Position numbers and translations under genes: made by a program. A stretch of 64,000 bases of DNA from Candidatus Saccharimonadales bacterium (GTDB lineage: Bacteria; Patescibacteriota; Saccharimonadia; UBA4664; SCTI01). The DNA lies in assembly GCA_035479795.1 (NCBI GenBank), contig DATIII010000002.1, positions 7-64,006 of the forward strand, written 5' to 3'. A model generated the notes under the pieces. It did no database searches, was not told the origin of the DNA, and saw only the letters and a list, made by a program, of their open reading frames with translations. Shown here piece after piece: positions 15,598-56,281 of this stretch (the stretch's first letter is position 1; every line of letters begins with the position of its first letter).

Positions 15598-15933
15598 ATG
15601 AATGATTCCGCTTGGGAACGCCTAATTGATGCAGTTGATGCCACCTGCGGCATTGATAAACACAGTAAAAATATGCGGCCGCTGGATGACCGCCCCGACT
15701 TAAACGAAACCGTTGAAGTTTTTGAGTTCGAGCGCGGTGGCCAAGCTTACAAACTAGAGCGAGTCAGCGGCCCAGCTATTATTGACCGCAAAACCCACTT
15801 TACTCATCGCGCCGGGACGGCTAATCGCATCGAAAATATTTACGACGAACATGAACTGGGACATAAAGTCACCCTATATAAAAACGAGGCGGGGGACTGG
15901 CAGCCTCAAGATATGAGCGCCTTGTCGCTATGA
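15598..15933 (+). CDS. Hypothetical protein (111 aa)
   Basis: The ORF's stop overlaps the gltX ATG (ATGA), suggesting translational coupling. No family recognised. Confidence 0.45.
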   Translation: MNDSAWERLIDAVDATCGIDKHSKNMRPLDDRPDLNETVEVFEFERGGQAYKLERVSGPAIIDRKTHFTHRAGTANRIENIYDEHELGHKVTLYKNEAGDWQPQDMSALSL

Positions 15934-17327
15934 CTGAAAAACCGAAGGTTCGCGTTCGCTTTGCCCCGAGCCCAACCGGATACCTACACATCGGTAATCT
16001 GCGCTCCGCTTTATTTAGCTATCTGTATGCGCGCCACACCCAGGGCAGCTTTATCCTGAGAATAGAAGATACCGACCGCGCTCGACTGGTCGAGGACGCC
16101 GTCGATTACGTAAAAGAGAACTTACTTTGGTTGGGCCTCAACTGGGATGAGGGGATTGAGAAGGGTGGTGAGCATGGGCCCTATGTGCAGTCAGAGCGAC
16201 TAAATCTTTACGCCGAGCATGCCGAAGCGCTAGTCGAGCAGGGGAAGGCTTACCGTGATTACACGTCGTCCCAACGACTTGAGGGACTAAGACAACATGC
16301 CCAAAAGGCCAAACAGCCATTTAAATTCACTAAAGACATGGCTCAACTTGAGCCCGACCATAAAGATGATCCATTTGTGATCCGCTTTGAAATCAAGCCC
16401 GGTCCGAATGTCATCTGGAATGACGCCGTCTGGGGAGAGCAAACTTGGAAGCGCAAAGTATTGGATGACTTTGTCGCCCTTAAGTCGGATGGCTTCCCTA
16501 CTTACAACTTTGCTGTAGTAGTGGATGATCATCTCATGGAAATCAGTCATGTCTTGCGCGGGCAGGAGTTTCTTTCGACCACGCCAAAAAATATTTTGGT
16601 TTACGAAGCTTTTGACTGGCAGATACCTCAGTTCGTGCATCTTCCGCCAGTTCTAGGCCCGGACAAATCAAAGTTATCAAAGCGCCACGGCGCCAAGTCC
16701 GCTCTCGAGTACCGCGACGCCGGCTATTTGTCTGAAGCCGTTTTTAATTACCTCGCCAGCCTAGGTTTCAATGACGGCACTACTCAAGAAATCTACACTC
16801 CAGCCGAACTAGCCAAGGTTTTTAACCTGGGCAGAATCCAAGCCAGTCCAGCCATATTTGATCCGGACCGGCTAGATTGGATGAATGGCGTGCACATTCG
16901 GCAAATGACGACCAAGCAGCTGCTGGTCCGATCAGCTGAATTCTGGCCACCCGAAGCCAAAAAATTTGATGAAGCATACCGCTTGAAAGTACTCGAACTG
17001 ATTAAGGAACGTCTGAAGTATTTTGCTGAAATACCTGAGCTAACCAGCTTTTTCTTTACCGACCCAAAACTGAACATCAAGCCCGATTCGCAGCCAATGT
17101 TGCTAAAGGTTGTTAACAAACTTGAAGACAGTGACTTTAGTGAGAAAGATCTGGAAAACCGTCTCCGGGCCCTGGTAGCCGCCGAAGATCTAAAAACAGG
17201 CCAGGTGTTTGGCATCATCCGACTGGCAGTCACCGGGAAAACAGCCGCTCCGGGTTTATTCGAGACCCTCCACGTGCTTGGCAAAGAAACCAGCCTACGC
17301 CGACTCCGTCACGCCGCCGGAGCATAA
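15930..17327 (+). CDS. gltX: Glutamyl-tRNA synthetase
   Basis: Class I HIGH motif in RFAPSPTGYLHIGN and KMSKS as KLSKR. Typical length of 465 aa. Confidence 0.9.
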   Translation: MTEKPKVRVRFAPSPTGYLHIGNLRSALFSYLYARHTQGSFILRIEDTDRARLVEDAVDYVKENLLWLGLNWDEGIEKGGEHGPYVQSERLNLYAEHAEALVEQGKAYRDYTSSQRLEGLRQHAQKAKQPFKFTKDMAQLEPDHKDDPFVIRFEIKPGPNVIWNDAVWGEQTWKRKVLDDFVALKSDGFPTYNFAVVVDDHLMEISHVLRGQEFLSTTPKNILVYEAFDWQIPQFVHLPPVLGPDKSKLSKRHGAKSALEYRDAGYLSEAVFNYLASLGFNDGTTQEIYTPAELAKVFNLGRIQASPAIFDPDRLDWMNGVHIRQMTTKQLLVRSAEFWPPEAKKFDEAYRLKVLELIKERLKYFAEIPELTSFFFTDPKLNIKPDSQPMLLKVVNKLEDSDFSEKDLENRLRALVAAEDLKTGQVFGIIRLAVTGKTAAPGLFETLHVLGKETSLRRLRHAAGA

Positions 17328-17333
17328 CCTTTA

Positions 17334-17342
17334 TGCTATAAT
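17334..17342 (+). promoter_or_regulatory. Extended -10 TGcTATAAT, 6 nt upstream of ATG 17349 (leaderless-type)
   Basis: TG at 17334-17335, TATAAT at 17337-17342, ATG at 17349. Confidence 0.4.
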
Positions 17343-17348
17343 CCAGGT

Positions 17349-18503
17349 ATGAAAGATATCCAGATCGACGGTGATCGGTTTGAGACTTCAACGCCTGATC
17401 CAGCCAATAAAAAACCTAAGCCCGACTCCTCCAGCGAAGGGCGGTTTGGTCGTTTCAAGAATTGGTTGAAGACCCACCATACGCGCATTATTTTGGGGCT
17501 GGGAGTTTTTGTGGTGGCGCCAGTGGCTGTCTGGGCGTACCTAGAGTCAACCAAGCCGGTGGAGCAGGTTTCTCAGGACGTCCATGTCAAAAAAGCCGTA
17601 AAGCCGCAAACTGAAGCCTCACCCTTAACTGGTGTACAGGTTGACCCGGCCCTGGCCGCCCGGCCCATCACCGCCGCCGTTATAGAGAACCATACCGACG
17701 CCCGACCGCAATCGGGTTTATCGGAAGCCGGCGTCGTGTATGAAGCTTTGGCCGAAGGCGGCATTACACGTTTTGAAGCCTTCTACCTTGAGAACCGGCC
17801 CAAGGAGCTGGGCCCCATCCGCTCAGTTCGTACTTACTTTGTTGATTGGGCTCTGGAATTTAATGCCCCTCTGGCCCACGCCGGCGGCAATGCCGACGCC
17901 CTCGACATTATCGGCCCTCTCGGTATGAAGGACATGAATGAATTTGTTAATGGCGGTTATTTTTACCGATCCAAGGACCGCTTTGCGCCCCATAACCTCT
18001 ACACCTCAAGCGACCAACTCGATTCTCTAGAAGCCAGACTAGGATACAACAAGCCTTCAAGCTTTAAAGCGAGCCCCCGCAAAAAGGACACCAAGAGCGC
18101 CCAGCCGGCCCACCCCGACATCAATATCAATTACTCCTACAACGGCTACCAGGTTGAATATAAGTACAATGCCGACTGCAATTGCTATGATCGCTTCCTG
18201 GCCGGCGCTCCGCACATCGACCGCAACACCGGCAAGCAAATTCAAGTTAAAAACGTCGTCGTTCAATACATGCCCACCAGCTACGGCACTACTCGCATCG
18301 GCGAACAGACGGTTATCATGGGCACTCCAGGTAGCGGCAAGGCGATTGTCTTTACTGATGGTGGGGCAGTAGAGGGGACCTGGAGTAAAGCGGCTCACGG
18401 CGAGCGCACCAAGCTGCTCGACGCAGCCGGCAAAGACATCCCCTTAAATGCTGGCAATACCTGGTATAGCATTGTGCCGACCGACAAGACTGTCAGCTAT
18501 TAA
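17349..18503 (+). CDS. DUF3048-family (YerB-like) secreted/membrane-anchored protein
   Basis: IENHTDARPQSGLSEAGVVYEALAEGGITRFEAFY and PIRSVRTYFVDWA closely match the DUF3048 N-terminal signature. N-terminal transmembrane segment. Confidence 0.7.
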   Translation: MKDIQIDGDRFETSTPDPANKKPKPDSSSEGRFGRFKNWLKTHHTRIILGLGVFVVAPVAVWAYLESTKPVEQVSQDVHVKKAVKPQTEASPLTGVQVDPALAARPITAAVIENHTDARPQSGLSEAGVVYEALAEGGITRFEAFYLENRPKELGPIRSVRTYFVDWALEFNAPLAHAGGNADALDIIGPLGMKDMNEFVNGGYFYRSKDRFAPHNLYTSSDQLDSLEARLGYNKPSSFKASPRKKDTKSAQPAHPDININYSYNGYQVEYKYNADCNCYDRFLAGAPHIDRNTGKQIQVKNVVVQYMPTSYGTTRIGEQTVIMGTPGSGKAIVFTDGGAVEGTWSKAAHGERTKLLDAAGKDIPLNAGNTWYSIVPTDKTVSY

Positions 18504-18586
18504 CCAGCCGATTGATTCAGAGTTGAGGACGAATATTTTATACATAAGCATTATGGTATAATTACATTGTAATAACCGGCTTAGCC

Positions 18587-19150
18587 GTGAAAACCAAAAT
18601 CAAACCAAAAGCCAAATCTAAACCAACAAAACGAGCATTAATAAAAGAACTGCGGGCAAAAGCTGCGCGGCGGGCTGGTCATAATGCGCGCAGGTCAAAG
18701 AAGCTAGCCCACCAGAACTTGGCAATTGTGATGTTTACTGCCATCATCACCATATCTTTTGGTGGTGTGGCTTTTGCTATCAACTTACAGCTGATTCCGC
18801 CGCCCACGGCGTTTAGCAAATATCCTGATACTCAAGCAGTGCTGGATAATTACATAAAACATCCCAAGATCACTCCAGATGGTTACCCCGACCAGATAGG
18901 TAAGGCCTCTTGGTACGCCATCGGGTTGCCGGCACCCGACGCCCTAACCTGTGCTTCAACCACTTTCCCACGTGGGACTCACCTTAAAGTTAAGAATCTC
19001 CGCAATGGGCGTGAGGTGGTCTGCCTAGTTAACGATTATGGCCCTCAGGCTTGGACGGGCAAGGTGATCGACCTTTCGCGCGGCAGCTTTGTCCAAATTG
19101 ACTCACTGAATGCCGGAACCGCACCTGTCGAGATTCGCGTTCAAAAGTAG
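18587..19150 (+). CDS. RlpA-like double-psi beta-barrel (DPBB) domain protein, membrane-anchored
   Basis: ASWYAIG...TCASTTFPRGTHLKVKNLRNGREVVCLVNDYGP...GKVIDLSRGSF matches the RlpA/expansin-like DPBB pattern. Upstream extended -10 TGgTATAAT at about 18553-18561. Confidence 0.65.
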   Translation: MKTKIKPKAKSKPTKRALIKELRAKAARRAGHNARRSKKLAHQNLAIVMFTAIITISFGGVAFAINLQLIPPPTAFSKYPDTQAVLDNYIKHPKITPDGYPDQIGKASWYAIGLPAPDALTCASTTFPRGTHLKVKNLRNGREVVCLVNDYGPQAWTGKVIDLSRGSFVQIDSLNAGTAPVEIRVQK

Positions 19151-20054: not shown

Positions 20055-20101
20055 ATCAAAATTATAGCATGCCGACCCTTACGCGGGTCGACATTTTGGT
20101 G

Positions 20102-20683
20102 TTAGTAACAAGTATTGGGCCAGGGGCTGCAGCCCCGAGCCGCATAGGTCTCATGCGCCTTGGCGTCCTGTACCTCGGCTGGTGCGTCGGAGGCATGACG
20201 GTAGCCACCATAGCCGCCCCAGGTACCATCGTTGTACTGGTAGGCGCCGTAGTAACCGTTGCCGGTGTTAGTGGCGTAGTTGCCACCCGATTCCCGCGCG
20301 CGAATGCGGGCAAAGATGTCTCCGCTCGGCGCAGCTGTACTGACACGGTGCGAAGCAGCCTGGTGGTGCGTTACAGGCGCCGTAGCCGCTACCGGGGCCA
20401 CGGAACCATAGCCGTCAGGCAGGGGGCGATCGGTGGTTGGTTTGCTTGGAATGGTTAATTCTTGGTCGACGCTAATTACGTCGGGATTTGATAGTTGGGC
20501 GTTGGCATTCCAGATTGGACGCCAATTTTCTAACTGGTTGTCGGCCGCAATCGAAGACAGTGATTCTCCGGTAGCGACCTTATGTTTTTCTGGCTGGTCG
20601 GTTGATCCGCTAGCAGCATGAGCACTGCCGGAGGCCATACCAATTCCCGCCGCTATTGCTAGCAGCATAATGATTTTACGCAA
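20102..20683 (-). CDS. Secreted LysM-domain protein with a C-terminal Rpf-like transglycosylase-like domain
   Basis: Signal peptide. LysM GESLSSIAADNQL...ISVDQELTIP. C-terminus ESGGNYATNTGNGYYGAYQYNDGTWGGYGG...AEVQDAKAH...CSPWPNTC matches the Rpf/transglycosylase-like pattern. TTG start with SD AAGGAG. Confidence 0.7.
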   Translation of the reverse strand: MRKIIMLLAIAAGIGMASGSAHAASGSTDQPEKHKVATGESLSSIAADNQLENWRPIWNANAQLSNPDVISVDQELTIPSKPTTDRPLPDGYGSVAPVAATAPVTHHQAASHRVSTAAPSGDIFARIRARESGGNYATNTGNGYYGAYQYNDGTWGGYGGYRHASDAPAEVQDAKAHETYAARGCSPWPNTCY

Positions 20684-20925
20684 GTTTTCTCCTTGTTTTT
20701 ACTCTAATGGCGCCCTGTCGCATACAGCCATTTTTTGGCGTCTACTTCACCTCACACAGTGGCACAAGCATTTAGGCTAACAAAGACCTCGTTAACGGTC
20801 AATAGTGCAATTTAACAGTTTTTGACGAAATTGACACGCAGCTTAAGAGGCTGATAGGTTGAGATAATTACAAAAATTGGTGGGTGAGTCCCAGGAAAGG
20901 TTTCCACCTATCCTGGGACTCCCAT

Positions 20926-21873
20926 TTACTGGCCCTGGGCCAAGCGCAACCGCTTCACGTTGGCGCTGGCCTCGGCGGCCTGGGTAGAGGCCACTTCAGT
21001 CTCGTCGGCCTCGGTCATCCCGACACTGGTGGTGACCACCGGCGGGCCGAGCAAACTAGCCACCACGGCGGCCGGCGCGGTCAGCACCTTGTCATCGAGA
21101 AGTCCCACTCCCTTGTTCAGGGCGCAGGCACTGGCATCGGCCAGGGCCTCCCTGGATACGACGACCTCACCGTAACCAGTTGGCTGCTTGCACTTGAACC
21201 CAACGTCATCGACCCGAATCCCGGCAATTCCACCGATTTCCCGAGCCTTGGTAATGATGCGCTTGTCGAGCAACCCGCGGATCAACTGCCGGTAGGTGAT
21301 CTTGCCGGCGTCCGTCTGGATGACCTGAACGATGCCCTCGTAGAGGTAATCGCTCCAGCTCGACATTTCCAGCTGCTTCTTGGCGACGTCGACCACCTGG
21401 AAGTGGATGACGGGTGTGACCTTAAAGGCCACGCAGTCGCGGGTAACGATCTTGAGCTCTTGGCACTCGTGCTTCTGAGGCCGCATATCGGTGGGGGGCT
21501 GCTTGTGGATAAACGGCAGCTTGAACCACTGGCCGGCGGTCCGGATCATCAGCTGCTGCCGCCGGGCCGGGTCCCAGCCGATCGGGCAAGGCAGAATGAA
21601 CGGGCCGAAGGCGCGCAAGCCATACCGATCCCAGTACCACGTCCGCAGGTGGAGCGGCATGCCGAAACGGGTCATGACGGACTCGTGGCCGTAGGGCATG
21701 CGAAAACAGCTCTTCTTCCCATCGGCATCGTCCTTGGCCTTCTTGGCCGCAATGCCGAGAATTCCGCCGGTAGTGACACTACCCCCGACAAGTGAAGGAA
21801 CAATTGTTGCGAGACTGGGCATAAGCCCCCTCCATGGGACTCGAGATTTACAGGTAAAACGTACTCCTCGCAC
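20926..21873 (-). CDS. SPFH/band-7 (stomatin/prohibitin-like) domain membrane protein with an Ala/Val-rich C-terminal tail
   Basis: F.MPYGHESVMTRFG, WFKLPFI and QELKIVTRDCVAFKVTPVIHFQVVD match the SPFH N-terminal signature. The likely start is the internal Met MPSLATIV. Confidence 0.55.
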   Translation of the reverse strand: MRGVRFTCKSRVPWRGLMPSLATIVPSLVGGSVTTGGILGIAAKKAKDDADGKKSCFRMPYGHESVMTRFGMPLHLRTWYWDRYGLRAFGPFILPCPIGWDPARRQQLMIRTAGQWFKLPFIHKQPPTDMRPQKHECQELKIVTRDCVAFKVTPVIHFQVVDVAKKQLEMSSWSDYLYEGIVQVIQTDAGKITYRQLIRGLLDKRIITKAREIGGIAGIRVDDVGFKCKQPTGYGEVVVSREALADASACALNKGVGLLDDKVLTAPAAVVASLLGPPVVTTSVGMTEADETEVASTQAAEASANVKRLRLAQGQ

Positions 21874-32979: not shown

Positions 32980-33528
32980 CTACTTCTTGAGATGGCAACC
33001 TTTGGGCCGTACCACCTTGCCGACGTATGGCTTGTTCTTAGGAGTTGGGCGCATGTACTCGCGCCACTCCGAACACGTCAACTTCACGATGCGAACCGGG
33101 CCTTTCTTCATCGGATACGGGTTCGCCTTCTGCCGTAGCTCCGGGCAGTCCTCGTAGAGGTGGGGCGGGTCCGCCTCGGGGTTCTTCGGCACTGGAGATT
33201 CTTGCTCCTGCTCGTAGGCCTTGCAGTCGACCTTGGGCCGCTGCTTCGGGATCTTGCAGTAGTCGAACGGCTCACCATCGGGGCTGGTCTGACCATTGGG
33301 GTCTTCGGCCCCCAAGGGGCTGTTCGACTCGTAGCCGGGCTGCCTGCTGTAATACTGTTGATCCTTAACCCACCACTTGGGCGGATCGCACTTCTGGACG
33401 AAGGCCTGCGGCTCCGAGTAGTCGGGAAAATCCCGGTCGTACTGGATCTGCTGGCCAATGACCATGCCGACCAGGAGAGCAACAAGACCGCAAACGACAG
33501 CAGCCCAAACGACGTCGGACTTCTTCAT
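32980..33528 (-). CDS. Membrane-anchored Cys/Pro-rich secreted protein (182 aa), high-GC
   Basis: N-terminal transmembrane anchor. SD GGGAGGG. 8 Cys residues, Pro/Lys-rich. No family recognised. Confidence 0.5.
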   Translation of the reverse strand: MKKSDVVWAAVVCGLVALLVGMVIGQQIQYDRDFPDYSEPQAFVQKCDPPKWWVKDQQYYSRQPGYESNSPLGAEDPNGQTSPDGEPFDYCKIPKQRPKVDCKAYEQEQESPVPKNPEADPPHLYEDCPELRQKANPYPMKKGPVRIVKLTCSEWREYMRPTPKNKPYVGKVVRPKGCHLKK

Positions 33529-37686: not shown

Positions 37687-38232
37687 TTACAACAGGCCTA
37701 ATTTACGGGCACAGGCAGGCCACGGGCGCCAGCCGCGAACGGCTTGGTCGGCGTGGGCCTTAGTATCCTGGACCTCGGCCGGGGCTAAGTCCGGACGGGC
37801 ATAGCCACCGTAGTTGTTCCAGGTACCCAGACTGTACTGGTAGGCGCCGAAGTAACCGTTACCCGAGTTACGGGTGTAGGTACTACCGGACTCACACAGA
37901 CGAATCTGGTAAAAGGCATCATCGCCAGCCGGGGCAACTACCTTAGTGGTAGCAACCTTAACAGCGGCGCGGCGGGCGGCCAATTTGGCAGCCTTAGTAG
38001 CCTCTTGCTTGGCCTTCAGCGGGGCAATCACGTCGGTATCGAAGTTAGGCTTCGGAGCGACGACAACTGTCACCGGTTGGACCTGTAGGGTATCGAGTTT
38101 GATCTCGTAAGGTGCGGGGGTCTCAACACTGGCCTGAGCCGTTGCTGAGGCGGTTATCAGACCGGTAAACGGGCTGATGACCTGGGCCGTTAGTGACAGA
38201 TGTGCCACCAACGTATGTAGATAGTTACGCAT
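37687..38232 (-). CDS. Secreted Rpf-like (resuscitation-promoting-factor / transglycosylase-like domain) protein
   Basis: C-terminus CESGSTYTRNSGNGYFGAYQYSLGTWNNYGG...AEVQDTKAH...WRPWPACA matches the Rpf domain pattern (CESGGNW..NTGNGYYGGLQ...TW...GG...WP.C). Start taken at ATG 38232 because the ORF-track ATG lies inside the promoter spacer. Signal peptide follows. Confidence 0.65.
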   Translation of the reverse strand: MRNYLHTLVAHLSLTAQVISPFTGLITASATAQASVETPAPYEIKLDTLQVQPVTVVVAPKPNFDTDVIAPLKAKQEATKAAKLAARRAAVKVATTKVVAPAGDDAFYQIRLCESGSTYTRNSGNGYFGAYQYSLGTWNNYGGYARPDLAPAEVQDTKAHADQAVRGWRPWPACARKLGLL

Positions 38233-38290
38233 AGCGCAGTTCGTAAAACGAGCTGTGATACGTCCTTTCTGGTTAGTGGTGCTGCCCAAT

Positions 38291-38320
38291 AAAAAGGACC
38301 TCGCATTGAGGTCTTTTATC
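38291..38320 (-). terminator. Intrinsic-terminator-like hairpin + U5 in the 5' leader of the Rpf-like gene
   Basis: 7-bp stem GGACCTC/GAGGTCT. On the minus strand it is followed by UUUUUAUU. It lies between the -10 at 38332-38337 and the start codon at 38232. Confidence 0.5.
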
Positions 38321-38331
38321 GAACGCGGAAT

Positions 38332-38360
38332 ATAATAAACCATAAGTGGTATTTTGTCAA
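38332..38360 (-). promoter_or_regulatory. Consensus promoter cassette (TTGACA-17-TATTAT) for the Rpf-like gene
   Basis: Minus-strand -35 (plus 38355-38360), 17-bp spacer, -10 (plus 38332-38337). Confidence 0.55.
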
Positions 38361-39828: not shown

Positions 39829-40617
39829 ATGAGAGCTCTCTGGACTGGGTCCCTTAGCTTTGGCTTAATCAACATCCCCGTACGGCTATATTCGGGTAGT
39901 GAGTCACGGGGTGGTATTGAGCTGACCATGCTTCATAAAAAGGACCTTTCACCAATCCGTTATGCCCGAATTTGCCGCGCCGACGGCAAGGAAATTCCGT
40001 TCGACCAGATTGTAAAGGGCTACGAGTACCAGGAAGGTGACTACGTGGTGCTAACCGATGACGATCTGAAAAAGGCCAATGCCCGGCGGACCAAGAGCAT
40101 TGATATCGAAGAGTTTGTGCACGAGGATGAGATTGATGTGCGCTACTACGAAAAGCCATACTATCTAGAACCTGATAAAAATGCGGCCAAACCTTACGCT
40201 CTGCTACGAGAGGCTTTGAATAAAAGCGGACGCGTGGCGATTGCCAAGTTTGTGCTGCGCAATAAGGAGCATTTAGCCGCCGTTAAACCGGTTGGCAAGG
40301 TATTGGTTCTGGAGCAAATGCGCTTTCCATCAGATCTGCGAGCGCCATCCAAGCTAGATATCCCGGAAGCCTCAGCCGCCACCAAAAAGGAGATTGATAT
40401 GGCCCTGGCGCTGATTGATCAACTGAGTGCGCCATTTATACCTGAAGATTTTCACGACACCTATACCGAGGAACTCGAAGCACTGATTGAAGCCAAAGCT
40501 AAAGGCAAAAAGCCCAAAGCCGCTGGACCAGCACCCAAGGCCACACCGAGTAAAGACCTAATGAGCATGCTCAAGGCCAGCCTAGAGAAGGAGCGCGACA
40601 AAGCCGCGTCCAAATAA
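39829..40617 (+). CDS. ku: Non-homologous end-joining protein Ku
   Basis: N-terminus MRALWTGSLSFGLINIPVRLYSG and the Ku core. Lys-rich C-terminus. Confidence 0.9.
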   Translation: MRALWTGSLSFGLINIPVRLYSGSESRGGIELTMLHKKDLSPIRYARICRADGKEIPFDQIVKGYEYQEGDYVVLTDDDLKKANARRTKSIDIEEFVHEDEIDVRYYEKPYYLEPDKNAAKPYALLREALNKSGRVAIAKFVLRNKEHLAAVKPVGKVLVLEQMRFPSDLRAPSKLDIPEASAATKKEIDMALALIDQLSAPFIPEDFHDTYTEELEALIEAKAKGKKPKAAGPAPKATPSKDLMSMLKASLEKERDKAASK

Positions 40618-43062
40618 ATGGCCCTGGCCGAATATAAAAAGAAGCGGACATTCAAGAGTAGTCCTGAACCGGCTGGCAAATTACATAAGCCGGAAAAGCA
40701 CTTGCGATTTGTGGTCCAAAAACACCACGCCAGCCAGCTCCATTATGATTTTCGACTAGAGCTCGATGGCGTCTTAAAGAGCTGGGCGGTGCCCAAGGGC
40801 CCCTCTTTAAATCCAGATGACAAGCGACTAGCTATGATGGTCGAAGATCACCCCTATGAGTACCGGGATTTCGAAGGGGTTATTCCGAAAGGCAATTATG
40901 GCGCCGGCAAGGTGATCGTATGGGACGAGGGTACTTATGAAGATTACGAGCAATCAAAAGATCTAAAAACTCAGATTAAAAATCTTCGCGCGGGACTAAA
41001 GAAAGGCGACTTTAAGTTTGTGCTGCATGGCCAAAAGCTGAATGGGGCCTACGTGTTGGCTAAGATGCAGGGTCGGGGTGAAAATAATTGGCTACTGATC
41101 AAGAAAAAGGACGATTTTGCCACCGCTGAGGATGTGACCAAACAAGGCGAATCTGTAAAATCCGGCCTGGACGTAGAAGCGGTCGGTGATGTTCCGGGCA
41201 AAAAATGGCTCAAGACGCCGAAGTTAAATCTGAAAGACGCTCCTAAGGCCACCCAACCAGGCAAGCTAGAACCGATGCTGGCGACATTATCAAAGGAAGC
41301 ATTTGACGGTCCGGACTGGCTGTATGAGATCAAGTGGGACGGCTACCGAATATTGGCGCATCTGGGAGACGGTGAGGTGAAACTACTTAGCCGCAATGGC
41401 AAAGACTACACCGAAGTGTTCGCGCCGATTGCAACGGAGCTATCAAGCTTGAAATTAAATGCCATCTTGGACGGCGAGATCGTGGTCTTGGACAAGGATG
41501 GCAAAAGTGACTTTGGGGCCCTCCAGGATTACCAAAAAACGGGTGCGGGCCATCTGGTATACGAGGTTTTTGACGCTCCTTTTGCAGATGGTCACGACCT
41601 TCGCGAACTCTCATTGACTAAGCGAAAGGAGATCGTCGCCGAAGCCATAGAGGATCTGGAAAACGTCCGCTATAGCGACCACATTACCGGAGGCGGCAAG
41701 GCCTTCTTCGCCCAGGCCGAAAAGCTGGGCTTGGAAGGCATAATGGCTAAACAAAATGACAGCCAATACTTAAATGGCAAACGGGGACAAAGTTGGCTGA
41801 AGATTAAGACCCACCAACGGCAGGAGGTGGTGGTTGGCGGCTGGACAGAGCCGCGCGGCGGTCGCAAAGGTATGGGCGCCCTTATTGTTGGCGTTTATGA
41901 GGAGAAGAGTCTACGCTACGTCGGTAATGTTGGTGGCGGATTTACTGAAAAGAGCATTGATGACATTTTGGTAAAATTGAAGCTCTTGGAGCGCAGGACA
42001 TCACCCTTTAGCGGGCCAGTCAAAAATGATACTGCCATCCATTGGGTGAAGCCCGATCTGTTAGCCGAGGTAAAGTTTGCCGAATGGACAGGGGACGGCC
42101 ATCTGCGGCAGCCGATATTCTTGGGACTGCGTGAAGATAAGGAGGCCCAGAAGGTGCAAAAGGAAGAAGCCATCGAACCAGGTGGGAAGTTTACACCGAC
42201 TCATCGCGATAAGGTATTTTGGCCCAAGGAAAAATACACCAAGGGTGACGTGATTGATTATTACGATGCCGTATCTGCCACCATCCTGCCGCACCTGGTT
42301 TATCGGCCGCAGTCAATGAATCGTCATCCGAACGGCATTAAGGGGGCTAGCTTCTTTCAGAAGGATGTCGAAAAACACCCTGATTGGGTCAAAACCAAAC
42401 CGATTTACTCAGAGTCAAACGATGGGGATATTAACTGGCTGATCTGTAACGACCGCGACACACTGTTATACATGGCCAATTTGGGCTGTATTGAGCTCAA
42501 CCCCTGGCACTCGCGCACCGCTAGCTTGGATAAGCCAGATTACTGTTTGATCGACCTTGATGCCAAGACCACCAAATTTGAAGTCGTTGTCGAAGTGGCC
42601 AAAGCGGCTAAGAAGCTACTAGATGAGATTAGCGCCGATTGCTTTGTAAAAACTTCTGGAAAAACTGGCATGCACATATTGATACCGCTAGGTGCTAAAT
42701 ATTCCTATGAACAATCCCGGCAATTTGCACAATTAATTGTTGGCAAATTGAATGAAAGATTGCCGAAGATAACCAGCGTGGAGCGCAATCCAGATAAACG
42801 TCGCGGTAAGATCTATCTGGATTACCTACAAAACCGCAAAGGCCAGACGATGGCAGCCGCCTACTGCCTGCGACCCGTCGAAGGCGCCCCCGTTAGCGCC
42901 CCTCTTAAATGGAGCGAAGTTAAGAAGGGCCTTGATCCCCGAAAATTCAACATAAAAACTATGCCAGCTCGTATCAAGAAAGTCGGTGATCTTCATAATG
43001 GCCTTACTGGTCACAGAGGCATTGATATGATGAAATGCCTCAAAAATCTCGAAAAGTCTTAA
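40618..43062 (+). CDS. ligD: Multidomain ATP-dependent DNA ligase LigD (3'-phosphoesterase, ligase and polymerase/primase domains)
   Basis: PE domain HYDFRLELDG...WAVPKGPS. Ligase KxDG as EIKWDGYR. C-terminal LigD polymerase domain. 814 aa. Immediately follows ku. Confidence 0.9.
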   Translation: MALAEYKKKRTFKSSPEPAGKLHKPEKHLRFVVQKHHASQLHYDFRLELDGVLKSWAVPKGPSLNPDDKRLAMMVEDHPYEYRDFEGVIPKGNYGAGKVIVWDEGTYEDYEQSKDLKTQIKNLRAGLKKGDFKFVLHGQKLNGAYVLAKMQGRGENNWLLIKKKDDFATAEDVTKQGESVKSGLDVEAVGDVPGKKWLKTPKLNLKDAPKATQPGKLEPMLATLSKEAFDGPDWLYEIKWDGYRILAHLGDGEVKLLSRNGKDYTEVFAPIATELSSLKLNAILDGEIVVLDKDGKSDFGALQDYQKTGAGHLVYEVFDAPFADGHDLRELSLTKRKEIVAEAIEDLENVRYSDHITGGGKAFFAQAEKLGLEGIMAKQNDSQYLNGKRGQSWLKIKTHQRQEVVVGGWTEPRGGRKGMGALIVGVYEEKSLRYVGNVGGGFTEKSIDDILVKLKLLERRTSPFSGPVKNDTAIHWVKPDLLAEVKFAEWTGDGHLRQPIFLGLREDKEAQKVQKEEAIEPGGKFTPTHRDKVFWPKEKYTKGDVIDYYDAVSATILPHLVYRPQSMNRHPNGIKGASFFQKDVEKHPDWVKTKPIYSESNDGDINWLICNDRDTLLYMANLGCIELNPWHSRTASLDKPDYCLIDLDAKTTKFEVVVEVAKAAKKLLDEISADCFVKTSGKTGMHILIPLGAKYSYEQSRQFAQLIVGKLNERLPKITSVERNPDKRRGKIYLDYLQNRKGQTMAAAYCLRPVEGAPVSAPLKWSEVKKGLDPRKFNIKTMPARIKKVGDLHNGLTGHRGIDMMKCLKNLEKS

Positions 43063-45556: not shown

Positions 45557-47890
45557 ATGGCAAAGCGACGCAAAAAAAAGCGGTCATTCTATAAAACGCG
45601 AAAGCCAGCGGTCGTTTTGGCAAGCCCTGAAATTATGCTACACATCCCGGCTGTTGTCCCCACGGGATGGGCCCTTATTAAATATGATGCCCCGGCCGTA
45701 ATACACGACATCGCCGAGCAGATCCGGCGAATACAACGAGCGCTTTGGAGTGTGCCCGCCAAGGCCGTTTATTACCTCGGTGCCATAACGGTCGGATTTG
45801 GCACCTTAGGGTTTGGAGCCGTAACCGCCTATGATACCCTCCAGCACTACGGACCAACTCTTAATAATCCAGCGGTAATAATGAATACCAAAAACACCGG
45901 CACGACCATTCTCGATCGCAATGGTGAGGTTTTATATCAGGGCTATGGAGCCGTCTTGCGTCACAATATACCGTACGAGGAAATGCCGACCAGTCTGAAG
46001 CAAGCCACCCTGGCGGCCGAAGATCCTGATTTTTACAAGCACCAGGGGTTCTCCTGGAAGGGAACGGCCCGAGCAGTCTACCAGGATGCTATTCATACCG
46101 GGAAGATCCAGGGCGGTTCGACCATTACCCAGCAGCTCGTCAAAAATACTCTGTTGTCATCCGAGAAGTCGTTTACGCGCAAGTACAAAGAAATCATTTT
46201 GTCGATACAGCTAGAGCACAATTACAGCAAAGACCAGATAATGCAGATGTATCTAAATACCATTTATTTCGGCCAAGGTGCCTATGGGGTAGAGTCGGCG
46301 GCTGAAACCTACTTCCATAAGTCACCCAAAAATTTAACTCTAGAAGAGAGCGCCCTCCTAGCGGGCCTACCGCAAAGTCCCAGTGTTTATGATCCGAACA
46401 TAAACCCTGATGGTGCCTTGGAAAGACGGAATTATGTGCTGCAGCGGATGCAAGAGCTTGGCTATATTTCTCCTCAGACAGCCAAAATAGCGGTAACCAG
46501 TGCCGTCCAAGCCGGGATTCGTGACTACACCATCAAAGCCCCTCATTTTGTTTTTTATGTACTGGACCAGCTGCGCAGCCAGTACGGATCGGAGATGGTC
46601 GAAAAGGGCGGTATTGTGGTCCACACTTCGCTGGACTATGCCAAGCAGCAGAAGGCCGAGGAGATAGTTAAAACCCAGGTCACGAAGCTAGCCGGGCATC
46701 ATGCCACCAACGGTGGGCTCGTATCGATTGATACCCATAATGGTGACATCCTGGCAATGGTCGGCAGTGCCAACTACGACAACCCCAACTTTGGGGCCGT
46801 CAATGTGACTTTGGCCCAATTGCAGCCAGGATCAAGCTTCAAACCCATCGCCTACGTAACGGCCTTTGCAAAGGGTTGGAATGGTGCAACTAAGGTGGAT
46901 GACAAACCAATCAAGCTGCCCCAGGGTGACGGTACGATTTATGCGCCCCAAAACTACGACCAGAAGTTCCGCGGGCCAGTAACTCTGCGCCGAGCACTGG
47001 CTAACTCACTCAATATCCCGGCCGTCGAAGTTCTTCAATATGCTGGGATTCACGACACGATTAACACTGCCCACGCGCTCGGTATTCAGGCTCCCAGCCT
47101 GACCGACGAAAGCCGGTATGGGATGAGCTTGGTGCTGGGGGGTGGGGAGGTCCGGCCGATCGATATGGCAGGAGTTTATGCCACCTTTGCTAACAAAGGG
47201 GTTTCGGTTCAACCGCGAGCCATTACCCGAGTTGAAGATCGATTTGGTAACAACATTACTCAGCCAAGGCATCAAAAGGCCAATCAAGCCGTTGATGGTC
47301 GGCTGGCCTACATGATTACTAATATTTTAAGCGACAATGGCGCCAGAACTGAAGAATTTGGGGCTAATTCACCCCTGAAGCTGAGCCGTCCAGCAGCCGC
47401 CAAGACGGGTACCACCAATGACTTTCGGGACAACTGGACTGTGGGTTACACGCCAGATATAGCCACAGCCGTCTGGGTAGGTAATAATGACCACACGCCT
47501 ATGCAGAATGTGGACGGCATTACTGGCGCCGCTCCAATTTGGCATGATTATATGGAAATGGCTCTCGCCGGTACTCCAGTAAATAACTTTGCTATACCAT
47601 CCGGCTTAGTCACGGCCAAGGTCTGTGCCACCGACGGCGGACTAGTCGACGACAACGATACTAAAGGCGTAACAGAAGTCTTCCTGGCTGAGGCTAAACC
47701 AACCCAGCACTGTGGCTGGTCCAGCCCGAAGCCCAAGCCAGTTTTGGTTCAGGCCGAAACACCGGCCGCTGCGCCGGCCCAAGTGGCGTCTGCGCCCGAG
47801 GAGGGGGGGAGAGGTGGAGGTGATCCGAGCCAGGATCAAAATCCTCCTACCCCGAATCCAGGGAATGTTCCGACGCCCCGAAAACCCTAA
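45557..47890 (+). CDS. Bifunctional class A penicillin-binding protein (PBP1A: GT51 transglycosylase + transpeptidase)
   Basis: GT motif EDPDFYKHQGF. TP motifs SSFKP, SLN and KTGT. N-terminal transmembrane segment. Pro-rich C-terminus. Confidence 0.85.
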   Translation: MAKRRKKKRSFYKTRKPAVVLASPEIMLHIPAVVPTGWALIKYDAPAVIHDIAEQIRRIQRALWSVPAKAVYYLGAITVGFGTLGFGAVTAYDTLQHYGPTLNNPAVIMNTKNTGTTILDRNGEVLYQGYGAVLRHNIPYEEMPTSLKQATLAAEDPDFYKHQGFSWKGTARAVYQDAIHTGKIQGGSTITQQLVKNTLLSSEKSFTRKYKEIILSIQLEHNYSKDQIMQMYLNTIYFGQGAYGVESAAETYFHKSPKNLTLEESALLAGLPQSPSVYDPNINPDGALERRNYVLQRMQELGYISPQTAKIAVTSAVQAGIRDYTIKAPHFVFYVLDQLRSQYGSEMVEKGGIVVHTSLDYAKQQKAEEIVKTQVTKLAGHHATNGGLVSIDTHNGDILAMVGSANYDNPNFGAVNVTLAQLQPGSSFKPIAYVTAFAKGWNGATKVDDKPIKLPQGDGTIYAPQNYDQKFRGPVTLRRALANSLNIPAVEVLQYAGIHDTINTAHALGIQAPSLTDESRYGMSLVLGGGEVRPIDMAGVYATFANKGVSVQPRAITRVEDRFGNNITQPRHQKANQAVDGRLAYMITNILSDNGARTEEFGANSPLKLSRPAAAKTGTTNDFRDNWTVGYTPDIATAVWVGNNDHTPMQNVDGITGAAPIWHDYMEMALAGTPVNNFAIPSGLVTAKVCATDGGLVDDNDTKGVTEVFLAEAKPTQHCGWSSPKPKPVLVQAETPAAAPAQVASAPEEGGRGGGDPSQDQNPPTPNPGNVPTPRKP

Positions 47891-52176: not shown

Positions 52177-52983
52177 TTATTTATAGTAGGCTTTGTGCTC
52201 GACCCGAAGATCAATATACTCACTAGGCGACTTCCTGCTTCGTGCTAACTCGCTCATCACGGCTGCTAAGTCCCCCAGTTCCTCCCCCGCCGGGCGAGTG
52301 GTATCCACCTTTAGTAAAAATCCTTTATCAGTTTTTACATAAAGCTCACTAGTGCTTTGGCTGACCGACGATTCCCCTGCCTTCAAACCAGTCTTAGTCG
52401 TCAATCCATTTAAAAACTCGTTGCAGAATGACACGAAGGCAGAAGATACGGCGGATTTACCCGGTTTTACCGGTACGTTACTAGCGTCGATGACCACCGG
52501 TAACCTGGAATAAATGCCCTTAGTCGGTGCGATGACCGTGCCATCAACATCTAAAAGATAGGTAGTGTCGCCAGTTCTCCAATTTAGTCCAGGCTGTCGC
52601 TCAACCACCTTTATCTTTAGTCTTCCTGGTAGTGATCTCTCAATAGCGACATCTTTTAGAGCTGGCTCGGCCTGTTCGAGATAGTTAGCCAAGGTCCCCG
52701 TGTCCGCCAGAACAGTATTACGACCAAAGATTTGTTTATGAAGCCCGTCATTCGCAAGAGCAGTCACCCGTTCTTTGGGAAGGGCCGTATTTCCCGAAAC
52801 ACTGATCGACTTTAGGGCTGTCCACCGAGATATAACGACCAACAAGACAAGGATGGCTACACCGACACCTGCTAGCCGGATCCATGATGATGGAATACTA
52901 ATATCACGACGGGGCTTTGATCGACGCGGTGGCCGTCGATCAAAGTTGGGTCGACCAACTCGGTTGACTTGGCGTGGTGGCAT
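52177..52983 (-). CDS. ftsQ: Cell division protein FtsQ/DivIB-like (POTRA domain)
   Basis: Single transmembrane segment followed by a POTRA-like region ISVSGNTALPKERV. Located after murG in the dcw order. ATG overlaps the murG stop (TAATG). Confidence 0.6.
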   Translation of the reverse strand: MPPRQVNRVGRPNFDRRPPRRSKPRRDISIPSSWIRLAGVGVAILVLLVVISRWTALKSISVSGNTALPKERVTALANDGLHKQIFGRNTVLADTGTLANYLEQAEPALKDVAIERSLPGRLKIKVVERQPGLNWRTGDTTYLLDVDGTVIAPTKGIYSRLPVVIDASNVPVKPGKSAVSSAFVSFCNEFLNGLTTKTGLKAGESSVSQSTSELYVKTDKGFLLKVDTTRPAGEELGDLAAVMSELARSRKSPSEYIDLRVEHKAYYK

Positions 52984-56252: not shown

Positions 56253-56281
56253 TGCTCTAACATTACCATTTTCTCATCTGT

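Follow-up and report, generated by a model that had tools for sequence, protein, structure and literature searches.

Two conserved Rpf-type (PF06737) genes in a Candidatus Saccharimonadales genome

Resuscitation-promoting factors (Rpf) are usually regarded as a speciality of the Actinobacteria that is tied to the exit from dormancy, and in these bacteria they stimulate growth from outside the cell. The founding member, Rpf of Micrococcus luteus, is a small secreted protein consisting of an Rpf catalytic domain and a LysM module. A ydaO-type c-di-AMP riboswitch controls some of the rpf genes of Actinobacteria.

No paper on Rpf proteins in Saccharibacteria or Patescibacteria was found, and the sole mention met with is one annotated row among the supplementary tables of PMC10633639. 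According to that source, all cultivated Saccharibacteria are epibionts of Actinobacteria. The gene SEML1_0667 of Southlakia epibionticum codes for an RpfB-like protein with two DUF348 domains, a G5 domain and PF06737 (KEGG K21688) and lies beside rsmA (PMC10633639, annotation data). PF06737 was therefore already known for the phylum. SEML1_0667 was scored non-essential (NE/NE/NE) by Tn-seq in co-culture and is the only one of the PF06737 genes of Saccharibacteria for which genetic data are available.

The window described here, i.e. the whole stretch of 64,000 nucleotides that was analysed, comes from a Candidatus Saccharimonadales (CPR) genome and carries two Rpf-type genes, A and B. Their features are collected in Table 1. 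Both open reading frames were found on the minus strand at the positions given in a first-pass annotation, and no third PF06737 domain was detected in the window by profile search. We estimate a probability of roughly 0.75 that A and B are long-resident paralogues encoding exported Rpf-type (PF06737, lysozyme-like) peptidoglycan enzymes, for which export and cleavage of glycan strands are predicted from sequence.

Table 1. Positions of the features of genes A and B in the window (aa, amino acid residues).
Feature	Position	Strand	Basis
Gene A, secreted (predicted) LysM + Rpf-type PF06737 protein, 193 aa, TTG start	20102..20683	-	ORF, Pfam
Shine-Dalgarno-like AAGGAG, 5 nt upstream of gene A TTG	20689..20694	-	read from sequence
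Gene A predicted Sec signal peptide, aa 1-23, MRKIIMLLAIAAGIGMASGSAHA/A	20615..20683	-	sequence pattern
Gene A LysM peptidoglycan-binding domain, aa 34-79	20447..20584	-	PF01476 31.7 bits, cut-off 20.9
Gene A Rpf-type catalytic domain, aa 118-193	20105..20332	-	PF06737 64.2 bits, cut-off 27
Codon of Glu131, gene A predicted catalytic general acid	20291..20293	-	alignment
Terminator-like hairpin, 10-bp stem, 6 G-C pairs, in 47-nt gap after gene A stop	20069..20094	-	pattern scan, consensus match only
Gene A conserved neighbours: GltX 15930-17327, DUF3048 17349-18503, RlpA-like DPBB 18587-19150	15930..19150	+	Pfam
Gene B, secreted (predicted) Rpf-type protein, 181 aa, without LysM	37687..38232	-	ORF, PF06737 58.4 bits
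Sigma-70-like promoter TTGACA-17-TATTAT, 11/12, upstream of gene B	38332..38360	-	pattern scan, consensus match only
Gene B Rpf-type catalytic domain, aa 102-181	37690..37929	-	PF06737, alignment, Foldseek
Codon of Glu114, gene B predicted catalytic residue	37891..37893	-	alignment

The Rpf-type identity of both domains, as proposed in the first-pass annotation, is confirmed by several lines of evidence. The profile matches lie well above the cut-off of 27 bits (Table 1). The best matches of a PDB sequence search were RpfB, RpfC and RpfE of M. tuberculosis, with E = 1.3e-12 for the catalytic domain of gene A against RpfB (PDB code 1xsf). The AlphaFold models of A and B have pLDDT >90 in the catalytic domain. 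In Foldseek comparisons RpfB, RpfE and RpfC were matched at TM 0.74-0.77 for gene A and 0.74-0.82 for gene B with rmsd about 2 Å, and the top matches were 4emn, 3eo5, 4cge and 4ow1. The catalytic Glu is invariant: Glu131 in 60 sequences of family A and Glu114, together with C113 and C174, in 58 sequences of family B. Both residues align with the catalytic Glu of RpfB, which belongs to its 'CEAGG' motif. The Sps/YabE-type assignment that had been named as the alternative did not occur; the 3D domain of these proteins was unmatched in A and B up to E = 1 (Pfam).

It is important to compare these proteins with the structurally characterized proteins RpfB, RpfC and RpfE of M. tuberculosis (1xsf, 3eo5, 4emn, 4ow1, 4cge). 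PF06737, the predicted fold and the catalytic Glu are common to all of them, and the catalytic domains are 35-45% identical with TM 0.74-0.82. However, the M. tuberculosis motif 'GG[LV]QF...REEQI' corresponds to 'GAYQ[YF]...AP..VQD' in A and B. The Cys pair flanking the domain is shared by the M. tuberculosis proteins and gene B, while gene A has no Cys beside the Glu. Unlike RpfB, neither A nor B contains DUF348 or G5, and their lineage is Patescibacteria, not Actinomycetota. An RpfB-type identity was rejected, with neither domain matched by Pfam and with FKBP and DPBB genes (gene A) or Dus and Ku genes (gene B) as neighbours in place of rsmA (ksgA). The equivalog models NF046106 (Rpf) and NF046107 (RpfC) gave 37.5-52.6 bits for A and B against cut-offs of 180 and 200, so that both belong to the same domain family but are not orthologues of the actinobacterial Rpf and RpfC. 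A Lactobacillus-type aggregation-promoting factor was also rejected, as only gene A was matched and this below the cut-offs (NF052398, 33.4 bits against 170; NF052397, 21.9 against 40). A and B are members of a known enzyme family and represent a mild variant of it. In both architecture and genomic context they differ from SEML1_0667, which is the single PF06737 entry of the S. epibionticum genome; no protein of the A or B type is listed there (PMC10633639, annotation data).

The catalytic domains of A and B are 59% identical to each other (BLASTP, E = 2e-27); at the DNA level, 77 aligned codons show 66% identity. The first-pass annotation assigned to both a common motif CESG...WP.C. This is correct for gene B, which has the canonical C113-E114 ... 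W-P-A-C174 followed by the tail ARKLGLL, but not for gene A, where the motif is R-A-R-E-S-G-G and the C-terminus is ...G-C-S-P-W-P-N-T-C-Y, i.e. WPxxC. In family A the catalytic Glu is preceded by R in 97 sequences, by K in 16, by H in 2 and by A in 1, but never by C, while in family B it is preceded by C in 112/112 matched sequences. In addition, C185 and C192 are invariant in the 60 family A sequences. As judged from these alignments, family A has lost the canonical Cys beside the catalytic Glu and gained a Cys pair at the C-terminus, and a C185-C192 disulfide is predicted. Gene B keeps the Cys pair flanking the Rpf domain (C113, C174), which is the pair expected to form the disulfide of this domain.

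A shared stretch of 45 nt with about 87% identity had also been reported. The likeness is indeed strong, with 38/45 (84%) in the best ungapped alignment (for example, 20233-20277 with 37833-37877), but the positions originally quoted give only 10/45; the two stretches were out of register, the start quoted for gene B being displaced by about 22 nt. Gene conversion over this 84%-identical segment was considered and gave no clear signal. Identical codons are used at 24/43 identical residues, compared with 16.9 expected from window-wide usage (z = 2.3) and with 23.7 expected from the preferred codon frequencies of the two domains themselves, an expectation that is partly circular.

The protein encoded by gene A begins with a putative signal peptide, assigned by sequence pattern. 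It has n-, h- and c-regions ending in A-H-A, a pattern kept in the family consensus, contains no lipobox Cys, and has low pLDDT in the AlphaFold model. The orthologues of gene A likewise begin with M-R-K, and the gene is called with 193 aa in the MAG GCA_964594805.1. The LysM domain is modelled with pLDDT >90 as β-α-α-β (E32-35, H42-48, H55-60, E75-78), and LysM structures appear among the Foldseek matches. The same two kinds of module occur in M. luteus Rpf in the opposite order, with LysM after the Rpf domain, while in gene A LysM precedes it. To our knowledge, resuscitation activity has been shown solely for the actinobacterial M. luteus protein.

The architecture and length of gene A are found also in proteins with a signal peptide, LysM and a classical Rpf domain from other Saccharibacteria (L036, L064 and L080, and L058, which is labelled Parcubacteria). 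These are collinear with gene A from end to end at 33-34% identity, and the linker motif 'IP..RPLP' is common to them. However, their catalytic domain is of the classical CESGGNW...GGLQF...REEQI...WPACS.KLGLR type, unlike that of gene A. Positional orthology with these genes was rejected, as there are no neighbours in common. Rpf proteins of the LysM-classical and of the RpfB-like form are thus present elsewhere in the Saccharibacteria.

In the protein of gene B a putative signal or anchor segment is followed by a helical linker and then by the PF06737 domain, and the gene is flanked by the Dus and Ku genes. The ATG at 38232 of the first-pass annotation, which gives 181 aa, is the better choice of start. 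A Candidatus Saccharimonadales transglycosylase family protein of 181 aa at NCBI is 100% identical, all orthologues have about 180 aa, and the candidate promoter overlaps the alternative ATG at 38343. Neither at gathering thresholds nor with the limit relaxed to E = 10 was a riboswitch or leader matched upstream of A or B.

Each of the two genes belongs to an orthologue family of its own in Saccharimonadia, with a diagnostic sequence signature. Family A has 1407 homologues and family B 339. The best 120 of the 1407 in family A are nearly all full-length and 48-72% identical to gene A, with one at 100%; for the best 120 of each family together the range is 46-82% apart from that single match, and the majority extend over 90% or more of the query. 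Members of both families are found on one contig in four cases (414741, 405478, 915730 and 642521 bp), where a common contig was taken from the equal size of the longest contig for one member of each family. The occurrence of full-length families A and B together on long contigs indicates that the split between them is old. Acquisition followed by duplication, as the first-pass annotation had it, is not borne out, since A and B are separate conserved orthologue families in the same genomes; their sisterhood has a bootstrap value of 10-15% in the neighbour-joining tree. The order GltX-DUF3048-DPBB is kept beside a 63%-identical orthologue of gene A in another locus (L091). For the family B orthologues no conserved synteny was seen between the genomes compared.

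The local GC content requires separate consideration, because the genes had been described as patches of about 60% GC in a genome of about 50% GC. The figure of about 60% holds for the domain-coding parts, with 62% (A) and 60% (B), but the whole genes have 57.7% and 58.1% (the latter for the 181-aa form), while the window has 51.6% and its genes a mean of 52.1% (sd 2.8). The excess lies at codon position 2, where GC is 0.557 in A and 0.498 in B (218-aa ORF) as against 0.418 (sd 0.045) for the genes of the window, and therefore reflects amino acid composition: the fraction of Gly, Ala, Pro and Arg is 0.37 in A and 0.34 in B, compared with 0.283 (sd 0.033). Whole-gene GC3 is 0.58 for A (0.576 expected, z = 0.1) and 0.63 for B (0.579 expected, z = 1.4), where the expected values are derived from the amino acid sequence of the protein and the codon usage of the window. 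The codon log-likelihood z is -0.5 for A and +2.0 for B. In nine related loci ranging from 38 to 60% GC, the GC content of the domain exceeds that of its locus in every case, by 4-12 points; GC1 and GC2 remain near 0.5-0.6, and GC3 varies from 0.29 to 0.86 and follows the genome. The 60% GC seen locally results from the richness of the domain in Gly, Ala, Pro and Arg and is no trace of recent transfer.

These data bear directly on the original proposal, in which the genes were recently acquired from a high-GC actinobacterial donor or host, left the visible 60% GC patch and were then duplicated within the genome. The GC of the domain-coding parts relative to the 51.6% of the window is in line with it, as are the actinobacterial affiliation of the nearest non-CPR relatives among the matches listed and the GC3 of 0.71 (0.58 expected, z = 2.5) in the catalytic-domain part of gene A. 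This last deviation, however, points toward the preferred codons of the window itself (log-likelihood z = +1.2), whole-gene GC3 and codon usage are native and indistinguishable from those of core genes, an outcome that the first-pass annotation had itself named as refuting, and the GC excess at position 2 is seen again in the genomes of 38-60% GC, where GC3 goes with the genome. Among the matches listed, actinobacterial sequences reach about 54-58% identity at best, as compared with up to 72-82% for the Saccharimonadia orthologues. Hundreds of Saccharimonadia proteins, at 50-82% identity, stand closest to A and B, which is not the patchy distribution of recently transferred genes. The separate signatures of families A and B are conserved in more than 100 sequences, and no integrase or transposase gene is found among the neighbours of either gene. 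A recent origin by transfer is thus very improbable. Local GC is tempting evidence of transfer but wrong here, and the present analysis corrects such use of it. A and B are both old conserved genes of the Saccharibacteria lineage and not recent imports from a high-GC donor.

The more distant history of the domain is a different matter. The first-pass annotation treated the domain as characteristic of Actinobacteria, but it occurs also in Chloroflexota and in several lineages of Saccharibacteria. Among the matches listed, the nearest relatives outside the CPR are an actinobacterial 'GAYQF' subtype (L011-L031), with a mean identity of 49-50% and up to 54-58%, which has the GAYQF and SP..QD motifs in common with A and B. 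It comes from genomes of 62-74% GC and differs in architecture. In the members from Frankia/Frankiaceae, Amycolatopsis and Nakamurella the catalytic domain stands at the N-terminus, and in Amycolatopsis (L016) and Nakamurella (L025) PG_binding_1 repeats follow it, in place of a LysM in front of it. In the members from Acidimicrobiia/Acidimicrobiales (L013, L026) it is C-terminal.

In a neighbour-joining tree of 79 columns, in which the branching inside the clade is unsupported, A and B form one clade with 16 actinobacterial 'GAYQF' sequences (Frankia, Acidimicrobiia, Amycolatopsis, Nakamurella) at 71% bootstrap. This clade stands apart from the classical 'GGLQF' Rpfs and joins the 'GMYQF' group of Actinomyces at 87.5%. 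The tree supports the grouping of A and B with an actinobacterial subtype. Such a grouping is in line with a reading in which the 'GAYQ' subtype would have moved once or twice, in either direction, between an actinobacterium and an early ancestor of Saccharimonadia, and would then have been fully ameliorated and diversified into families A and B. A and B are about as similar to the Frankia/Frankiaceae sequences (54%) as to each other (55%), among the matches listed. The tblastn matches of the gene B domain are mostly from Actinobacteria in annotated plasmids and almost all from phages of actinobacterial hosts in annotated phages. In the same search the catalytic domain of gene A was unmatched at E = 10, probably owing to low-complexity masking of a Gly/Tyr-rich segment. 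Contact between the two groups is also at hand, as cultivated Saccharibacteria live on Actinobacteria (PMC10633639).

Against this exchange it should be noted that the tree is based on few columns with weak inner branching, that the domain is present in Chloroflexota too, and that the genome scan is biased toward hits most similar to gene B (at least 600 stretches from species-representative genomes, with 80 matches most similar to gene B, which is no census of phyla). Moreover, Saccharibacteria carry the classical LysM-Rpf and an RpfB-type protein beside rsmA, and in the actinobacterial records compared the annotated resuscitation-promoting factor is likewise followed by rsmA; vertical descent from a common ancestor fits this pattern equally well. 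An ancient exchange with Actinobacteria is possible, at somewhat less than even odds. It agrees with the reading of A and B as long-resident paralogues on the present-day state and differs from it only in the ultimate origin.

In the proposed mechanism both proteins would be exported via Sec. The protein of gene A would be held on peptidoglycan by the N-terminal LysM, with a disordered Pro/Ala linker leading to the catalytic domain, while in gene B a short β-hairpin and a long helix would take the place of LysM. As the invariant residues, E131 of A and E114 of B may serve as the general acid that cuts the MurNAc-β-1,4-GlcNAc bond, the predicted specificity. The organism builds its own wall, since the window encodes MurG, FtsW, MraY and PBPs of classes A and B, and gene A is part of a conserved gene cluster that contains an RlpA-like lytic transglycosylase too; the neighbourhood also includes FKBP. 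This peptidoglycan machinery and the RlpA-like neighbour favour a role on the cell's own wall, and remodelling of that wall in growth and division is the most likely function, with the target deduced from gene content.

Alternatively, the predicted-secreted A and B could be directed at the host, thinning its wall at the attachment site for nutrients or releasing muropeptides that stimulate a dormant actinobacterial host. Both proteins are predicted from sequence to be exported, actinobacterial Rpf proteins stimulate growth from outside the cell, and gene A has a LysM, a module that binds peptidoglycan in general. The suggestion of the first-pass annotation that the organism is an epibiont was apt, as the window derives from a Candidatus Saccharimonadales MAG, and this lineage is epibiotic, its cultivated members living on Actinobacteria (PMC10633639). 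However, gene A is located among envelope and housekeeping genes in a conserved order, the organism needs autolysins for its own wall, and neither gene is linked to the type IV secretion ATPase gene (49034-51736) or to pili in the window. Families A and B are apparently absent from the cultivated S. epibionticum, which on its host can do without the one PF06737 gene that it has (PMC10633639). This dispensability of SEML1_0667 agrees neither with an essential function in housekeeping nor with an essential part in host attack. Host-directed action of A and B is considered a real alternative, but an unlikely one.

A wider form of this proposal, which we regard as quite improbable, is that Saccharibacteria secrete their own Rpf-type factors onto actinobacterial hosts, opening the wall at the contact site or waking dormant hosts with muropeptides, with family A as the specialisation for host targeting. 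The features of the family A variant taken up in this proposal are the LysM anchor, the lack of Cys beside the Glu and the new C-terminal Cys pair. If it were true, an epibiont could turn a resting host into one on which it can feed.

The practical value of this analysis is modest, and includes the definition of two sequence families, each with a clear signature. For the biology of the group it is important that two conserved and native Rpf-type enzymes, predicted to be secreted, are maintained in one order of Saccharibacteria or more.

Two minus-strand genes of the window, gene A and gene B, encode proteins whose catalytic domains are like those of the resuscitation-promoting factors (Rpf), and both reading frames were found where the first-pass annotation had placed them (see the table). 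In the Pfam search, residues 34-79 of gene A match LysM (PF01476, 31.7 bits) and residues 124-190 match PF06737, 'Transglycosylase-like' (64.2 bits; the cut-off is 27). For gene B the PF06737 score is 58.4 bits, and Pfam shows no LysM. Both scores are well above the cut-off, which bears out the Rpf-like assignment. The catalytic domains of A and B share 59% identity (E = 2e-27), and a profile search in all six reading frames found no third PF06737 copy in the window. The motif CESG...WP.C attributed to both proteins holds only in part, because gene A reads RARESGG and ends in GCSPWPNTCY. The 45-nt segments quoted as nearly identical are out of register, with 10/45 identical positions; the best ungapped 45-mer has 38/45 (84%), for example 20233-20277 and 37833-37877, and nucleotide identity across the whole domain is 66%.

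The 181-residue form of gene B chosen in that annotation is preferred over a 218-residue reading frame, since an NCBI protein of 181 residues is 100% identical, every orthologue has about 180 residues, and a near-consensus promoter, TTGACA-17-TATTAT (38360-38332), runs across the upstream ATG at which the longer frame would begin. Between this strong promoter-like site and the ATG of gene B lies a leader of about 95 nt with a 6-bp hairpin and, after it, a T-run (38313-38297). For gene A, a Shine-Dalgarno sequence of its own was identified along with a terminator-like hairpin. No Rfam family was matched upstream of either gene.

Coordinates of features in the window and in comparison loci (L-numbers) from other genomes and plasmids
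Feature	Position	Strand	Remarks
DUF3048 protein	17349-18503		just upstream of gene A
RlpA-like DPBB protein	18587-19150		N-terminal membrane segment; just upstream of gene A
Gene A	20102-20683	-	193 aa; TTG start, AAGGAG just before it
High-GC3 gene	20926-21822	-	GC3 0.775; sub-threshold SPFH/Band 7 match, 20 bits
High-GC3 gene	32980-33528	-	GC3 0.79; no Pfam match
Gene B	37687-38232	-	PF06737 without LysM
Gene B promoter-like site and leader	38232-38360	-	
Ku (262 aa), then LigD (814 aa)	39829-43062	+	LigD_N, ligase and primase-polymerase domain matches
Class A PBP	45557-47890		
900-aa protein	49034-51736	+	HerA/DUF87 and TrwB-type (type IV secretion coupling protein) ATPase matches
FtsQ, MurG, FtsW, MraY, class B PBP	52177-58015		division/cell-wall cluster
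LysM + classical Rpf	L036 2623-3243		other Saccharibacteria
LysM + classical Rpf	L064 2566-3222		other Saccharibacteria
LysM + classical Rpf	L080 2518-3222		other Saccharibacteria
LysM + classical Rpf	L058 2440-3225		MAG labelled Parcubacteria
LysM + family-B-like PF06737	L021 644-1342		MAG labelled Gammaproteobacteria
GAYQF domain, PG_binding_1 repeats	L016 2719-3561		Amycolatopsis
GAYQF domain, PG_binding_1 repeats	L025 2647-3861		Nakamurella
PF06737 protein	L010 610-2631		Gordonia plasmid pGKT1

The closest solved structures by sequence are RpfB (1xsf, E = 1.3e-12), RpfC and RpfE. AlphaFold models of A (from 60 family sequences) and B (from 58) have pLDDT >90 across the catalytic domain, and their top Foldseek matches are RpfB, RpfE and RpfC, with TM values of 0.74-0.82 and rmsd of about 2 Å. 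A cross-phylum alignment of 13 sequences and the families of both genes keep the catalytic Glu without exception. A grouping with the Firmicutes Sps/YabE proteins, named earlier as the alternative, finds no 3D-domain match in A or B. The NCBIfam equivalog scores are 38-53 bits, far under the cut-offs of 180-200 for Rpf and RpfC, so A and B are not orthologous to these two named proteins.

Gene A has 1407 homologous proteins and gene B 339, mostly from Candidatus Saccharimonadia, Saccharimonadales or Saccharibacteria where named; those of Saccharimonadales are already automatically annotated in databases as 'transglycosylase family protein'. The best 120 matches of family A are nearly all LysM + PF06737 proteins of 188-226 residues with 48-72% identity (one 100%), while the best 120 of family B have about 180 residues (a few up to 255) and 46-82% identity. 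In family A the catalytic Glu is preceded by R (97), K (16), H (2) or A (1) and never by C, and the proteins end in RGCSPWPNTC[YR], in which C185 and C192 never vary. Family B has C before the Glu in 112/112 matched sequences and a W.PWP.CARKLGL[LM] tail. In four pairs, one protein from each family has a longest contig of equal length (414741, 405478, 915730 and 642521 bp), which is taken as a single shared contig, and the proteins of genes A and B are both encoded in MAG GCA_964594805.1 (contig CAZQMU010000001.1). The separate signatures, the many orthologues and the presumed presence on the same contigs therefore indicate that A and B separated long ago. Family A is a mild structural variant of known Rpf-type enzymes. 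The protein of Gordonia plasmid pGKT1 (AEHESGG...WPVTS) lacks both canonical cysteines, so Cys-less variants exist outside family A.

The high GC content of the two genes had been read as compatible with acquisition from a high-GC donor. The figures are right (62% and 60% in the domain-coding parts of A and B, against 51.6% for the window), but the inference drawn from them is wrong, as GC3 and codon usage are native. The excess is at codon position 2, where GC is 0.557 in A and 0.498 in B (218-aa frame) and the 47 window genes have 0.418 (sd 0.045). Gly, Ala, Pro and Arg make up 37% of A and 34% of B, against 28.3% (sd 3.3). Whole-gene GC3 (0.577 for A, 0.603 for B) lies inside the distribution of the window genes (0.562, sd 0.061). 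The amino acids and window codon usage predict 0.576 and 0.579; the observed values are 0.580 and 0.630 (z = 0.1 and 1.4). Codon usage is typical or better than typical, with leave-one-out log-likelihood z of -0.5 for A and +2.0 for B. GC3 is raised only in the 76-codon catalytic part of A (0.71, z = 2.5), where it leans to the preferred codons of the window (likelihood z = +1.2). Most telling are nine related loci of 38% to 60% GC, where the domain always exceeds its own locus by 4-12 points and GC1 and GC2 stay near 0.5-0.6, while GC3 tracks the genome from 0.29 to 0.86. The position-2 excess, the native GC3 and this recurrence show that a GC-rich patch belongs to the Rpf-type domain itself. 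Recent transfer from a high-GC donor is refuted by codon usage, the very evidence that the first-pass annotation had named.

The two high-GC3 genes in the table are stronger GC3 outliers than both Rpf-type genes. They use window-preferred codons (z = +2.5 and +1.0, in the order listed) against a window GC3 of 0.56, and could be highly expressed. The most atypical codon usage of the window is found in the four genes from FtsQ to MraY (52177-56252; z = -2.8 to -5.1), which may reflect some membrane proteins rather than foreign origin.

Older contact with Actinobacteria is a separate question. In tblastn searches with the gene B domain, matches on annotated plasmids are mostly from Actinobacteria (Streptomyces, Gordonia, Pseudonocardia, Actinomyces oris and others). 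Proteobacteria contribute a few weak ones; all are <60% identical, and 36-46% among the 40 records listed. Matches in annotated phages are nearly confined to phages of actinobacterial hosts; in those of Mycobacterium, Rhodococcus and Streptomyces they fall on tape-measure proteins, lysins and transglycosylases. The best 80 of at least 600 matching stretches in species-representative genomes are mainly from Actinomycetota, with 3 from Chloroflexota, 4 from Saccharibacteria, 2 from Parcubacteria-labelled MAGs and 1 from a Gammaproteobacteria-labelled MAG (39% GC). Two motif subtypes occur in the sample. The classical 'GG[LVI]QF...REEQI' is found in RpfB, most sampled Actinobacteria, Chloroflexota and Saccharibacteria L036, L059, L064 and L080. 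The second, 'GAYQ[FY]...SP..QD', unites the two families of the window genes with 16 actinobacterial sequences (Frankia, Acidimicrobiia, Amycolatopsis, Nakamurella and Actinomycetota MAGs). Mean identity is 0.54 between A and B, 0.49-0.50 from either to actinobacterial GAYQF sequences and 0.39-0.41 to classical ones. A neighbour-joining tree (134 sequences, 79 columns, 200 bootstraps) gives 71% support to the GAYQ-type clade spanning both phyla, or 87.5% with the Actinomyces 'GMYQF' group, and only 10-15% to the sisterhood of A and B. The window proteins are 54% identical to Frankia/Frankiaceae sequences and 55% to each other. This cross-phylum clade and the near-equal identities make an ancient exchange with Actinobacteria plausible, in either direction and in one or more events, perhaps followed by the duplication that the first-pass annotation proposed.

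Two side observations concern this sample. L021, on a 39% GC contig, clusters with family B and is probably a misbinned CPR contig. In the Amycolatopsis and Nakamurella proteins the GAYQF domain is N-terminal to the repeats, and no description of this subgroup was found in the literature searched.

Low-GC Saccharibacteria have proteins with a signal peptide, LysM and a classical Rpf domain that are collinear with full-length gene A at 33-34% identity, although their loci are not syntenic with it. The four LysM + classical Rpf proteins in the table have the architecture of gene A with the other catalytic subtype (CESGGNW...GGLQF...REEQI), which suggests either that the domain subtype was replaced or that a single architecture diverged deeply. 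Among the entries drawn from PMC10633639, SEML1_0667 is the sole PF06737 entry for Southlakia epibionticum, a cultivated Saccharibacterium; this RpfB-like gene has two DUF348 domains, G5 and PF06737 (KEGG K21688), lies directly beside rsmA and is non-essential in all three Tn-seq classification columns. In the actinobacterial records examined, rsmA likewise comes directly after the annotated resuscitation-promoting factor. Full-text searches found no papers discussing Rpf-type proteins in Saccharibacteria or Patescibacteria.

The window also encodes TopA and GltX besides the division and wall-synthesis proteins and the Ku-LigD pair, and is therefore ordinary chromosomal DNA of a peptidoglycan-making CPR bacterium. 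Neither gene A nor gene B sits in a mobile context. The order GltX-DUF3048-DPBB is retained in L091 beside a 63%-identical gene A orthologue and is gone beside a 48%-identical one; DUF3048 and DPBB may form a small conserved cell-envelope cluster of Saccharimonadales. The neighbourhoods of family B are variable, yet made of housekeeping genes. Ku and LigD, about 1.6 kb from gene B, form a pair for non-homologous end joining, here in a CPR genome that is reduced. The HerA/TrwB-type ATPase gene adjoins neither Rpf-type gene.

Both proteins would be exported by the Sec pathway, gene A with the predicted signal MRKIIMLLAIAAGIGMASGSAHA followed by A, and gene B with a hydrophobic N-terminus ending in A-Q-A. 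LysM would anchor the gene A protein non-covalently on peptidoglycan; its linker (residues 97-120, AlphaFold pLDDT <50) is read as disordered. Glu131 of A or Glu114 of B would serve as the general acid in cutting the MurNAc-GlcNAc bond, and in family A a local C185-C192 bridge may take the place of the canonical domain-spanning disulfide. The earlier, conditional suggestion of an epibiont was a good one, as the source lineage is Saccharimonadales, and cultivated members of the Saccharibacteria group are described in PMC10633639 as growing on Actinobacteria. Putative action of A and B on the wall of such a host is a minority alternative. Because the cell has the genes to make its own wall and an RlpA-like DPBB protein accompanies gene A, remodelling of the cell's own wall is rated the most likely role of both proteins.
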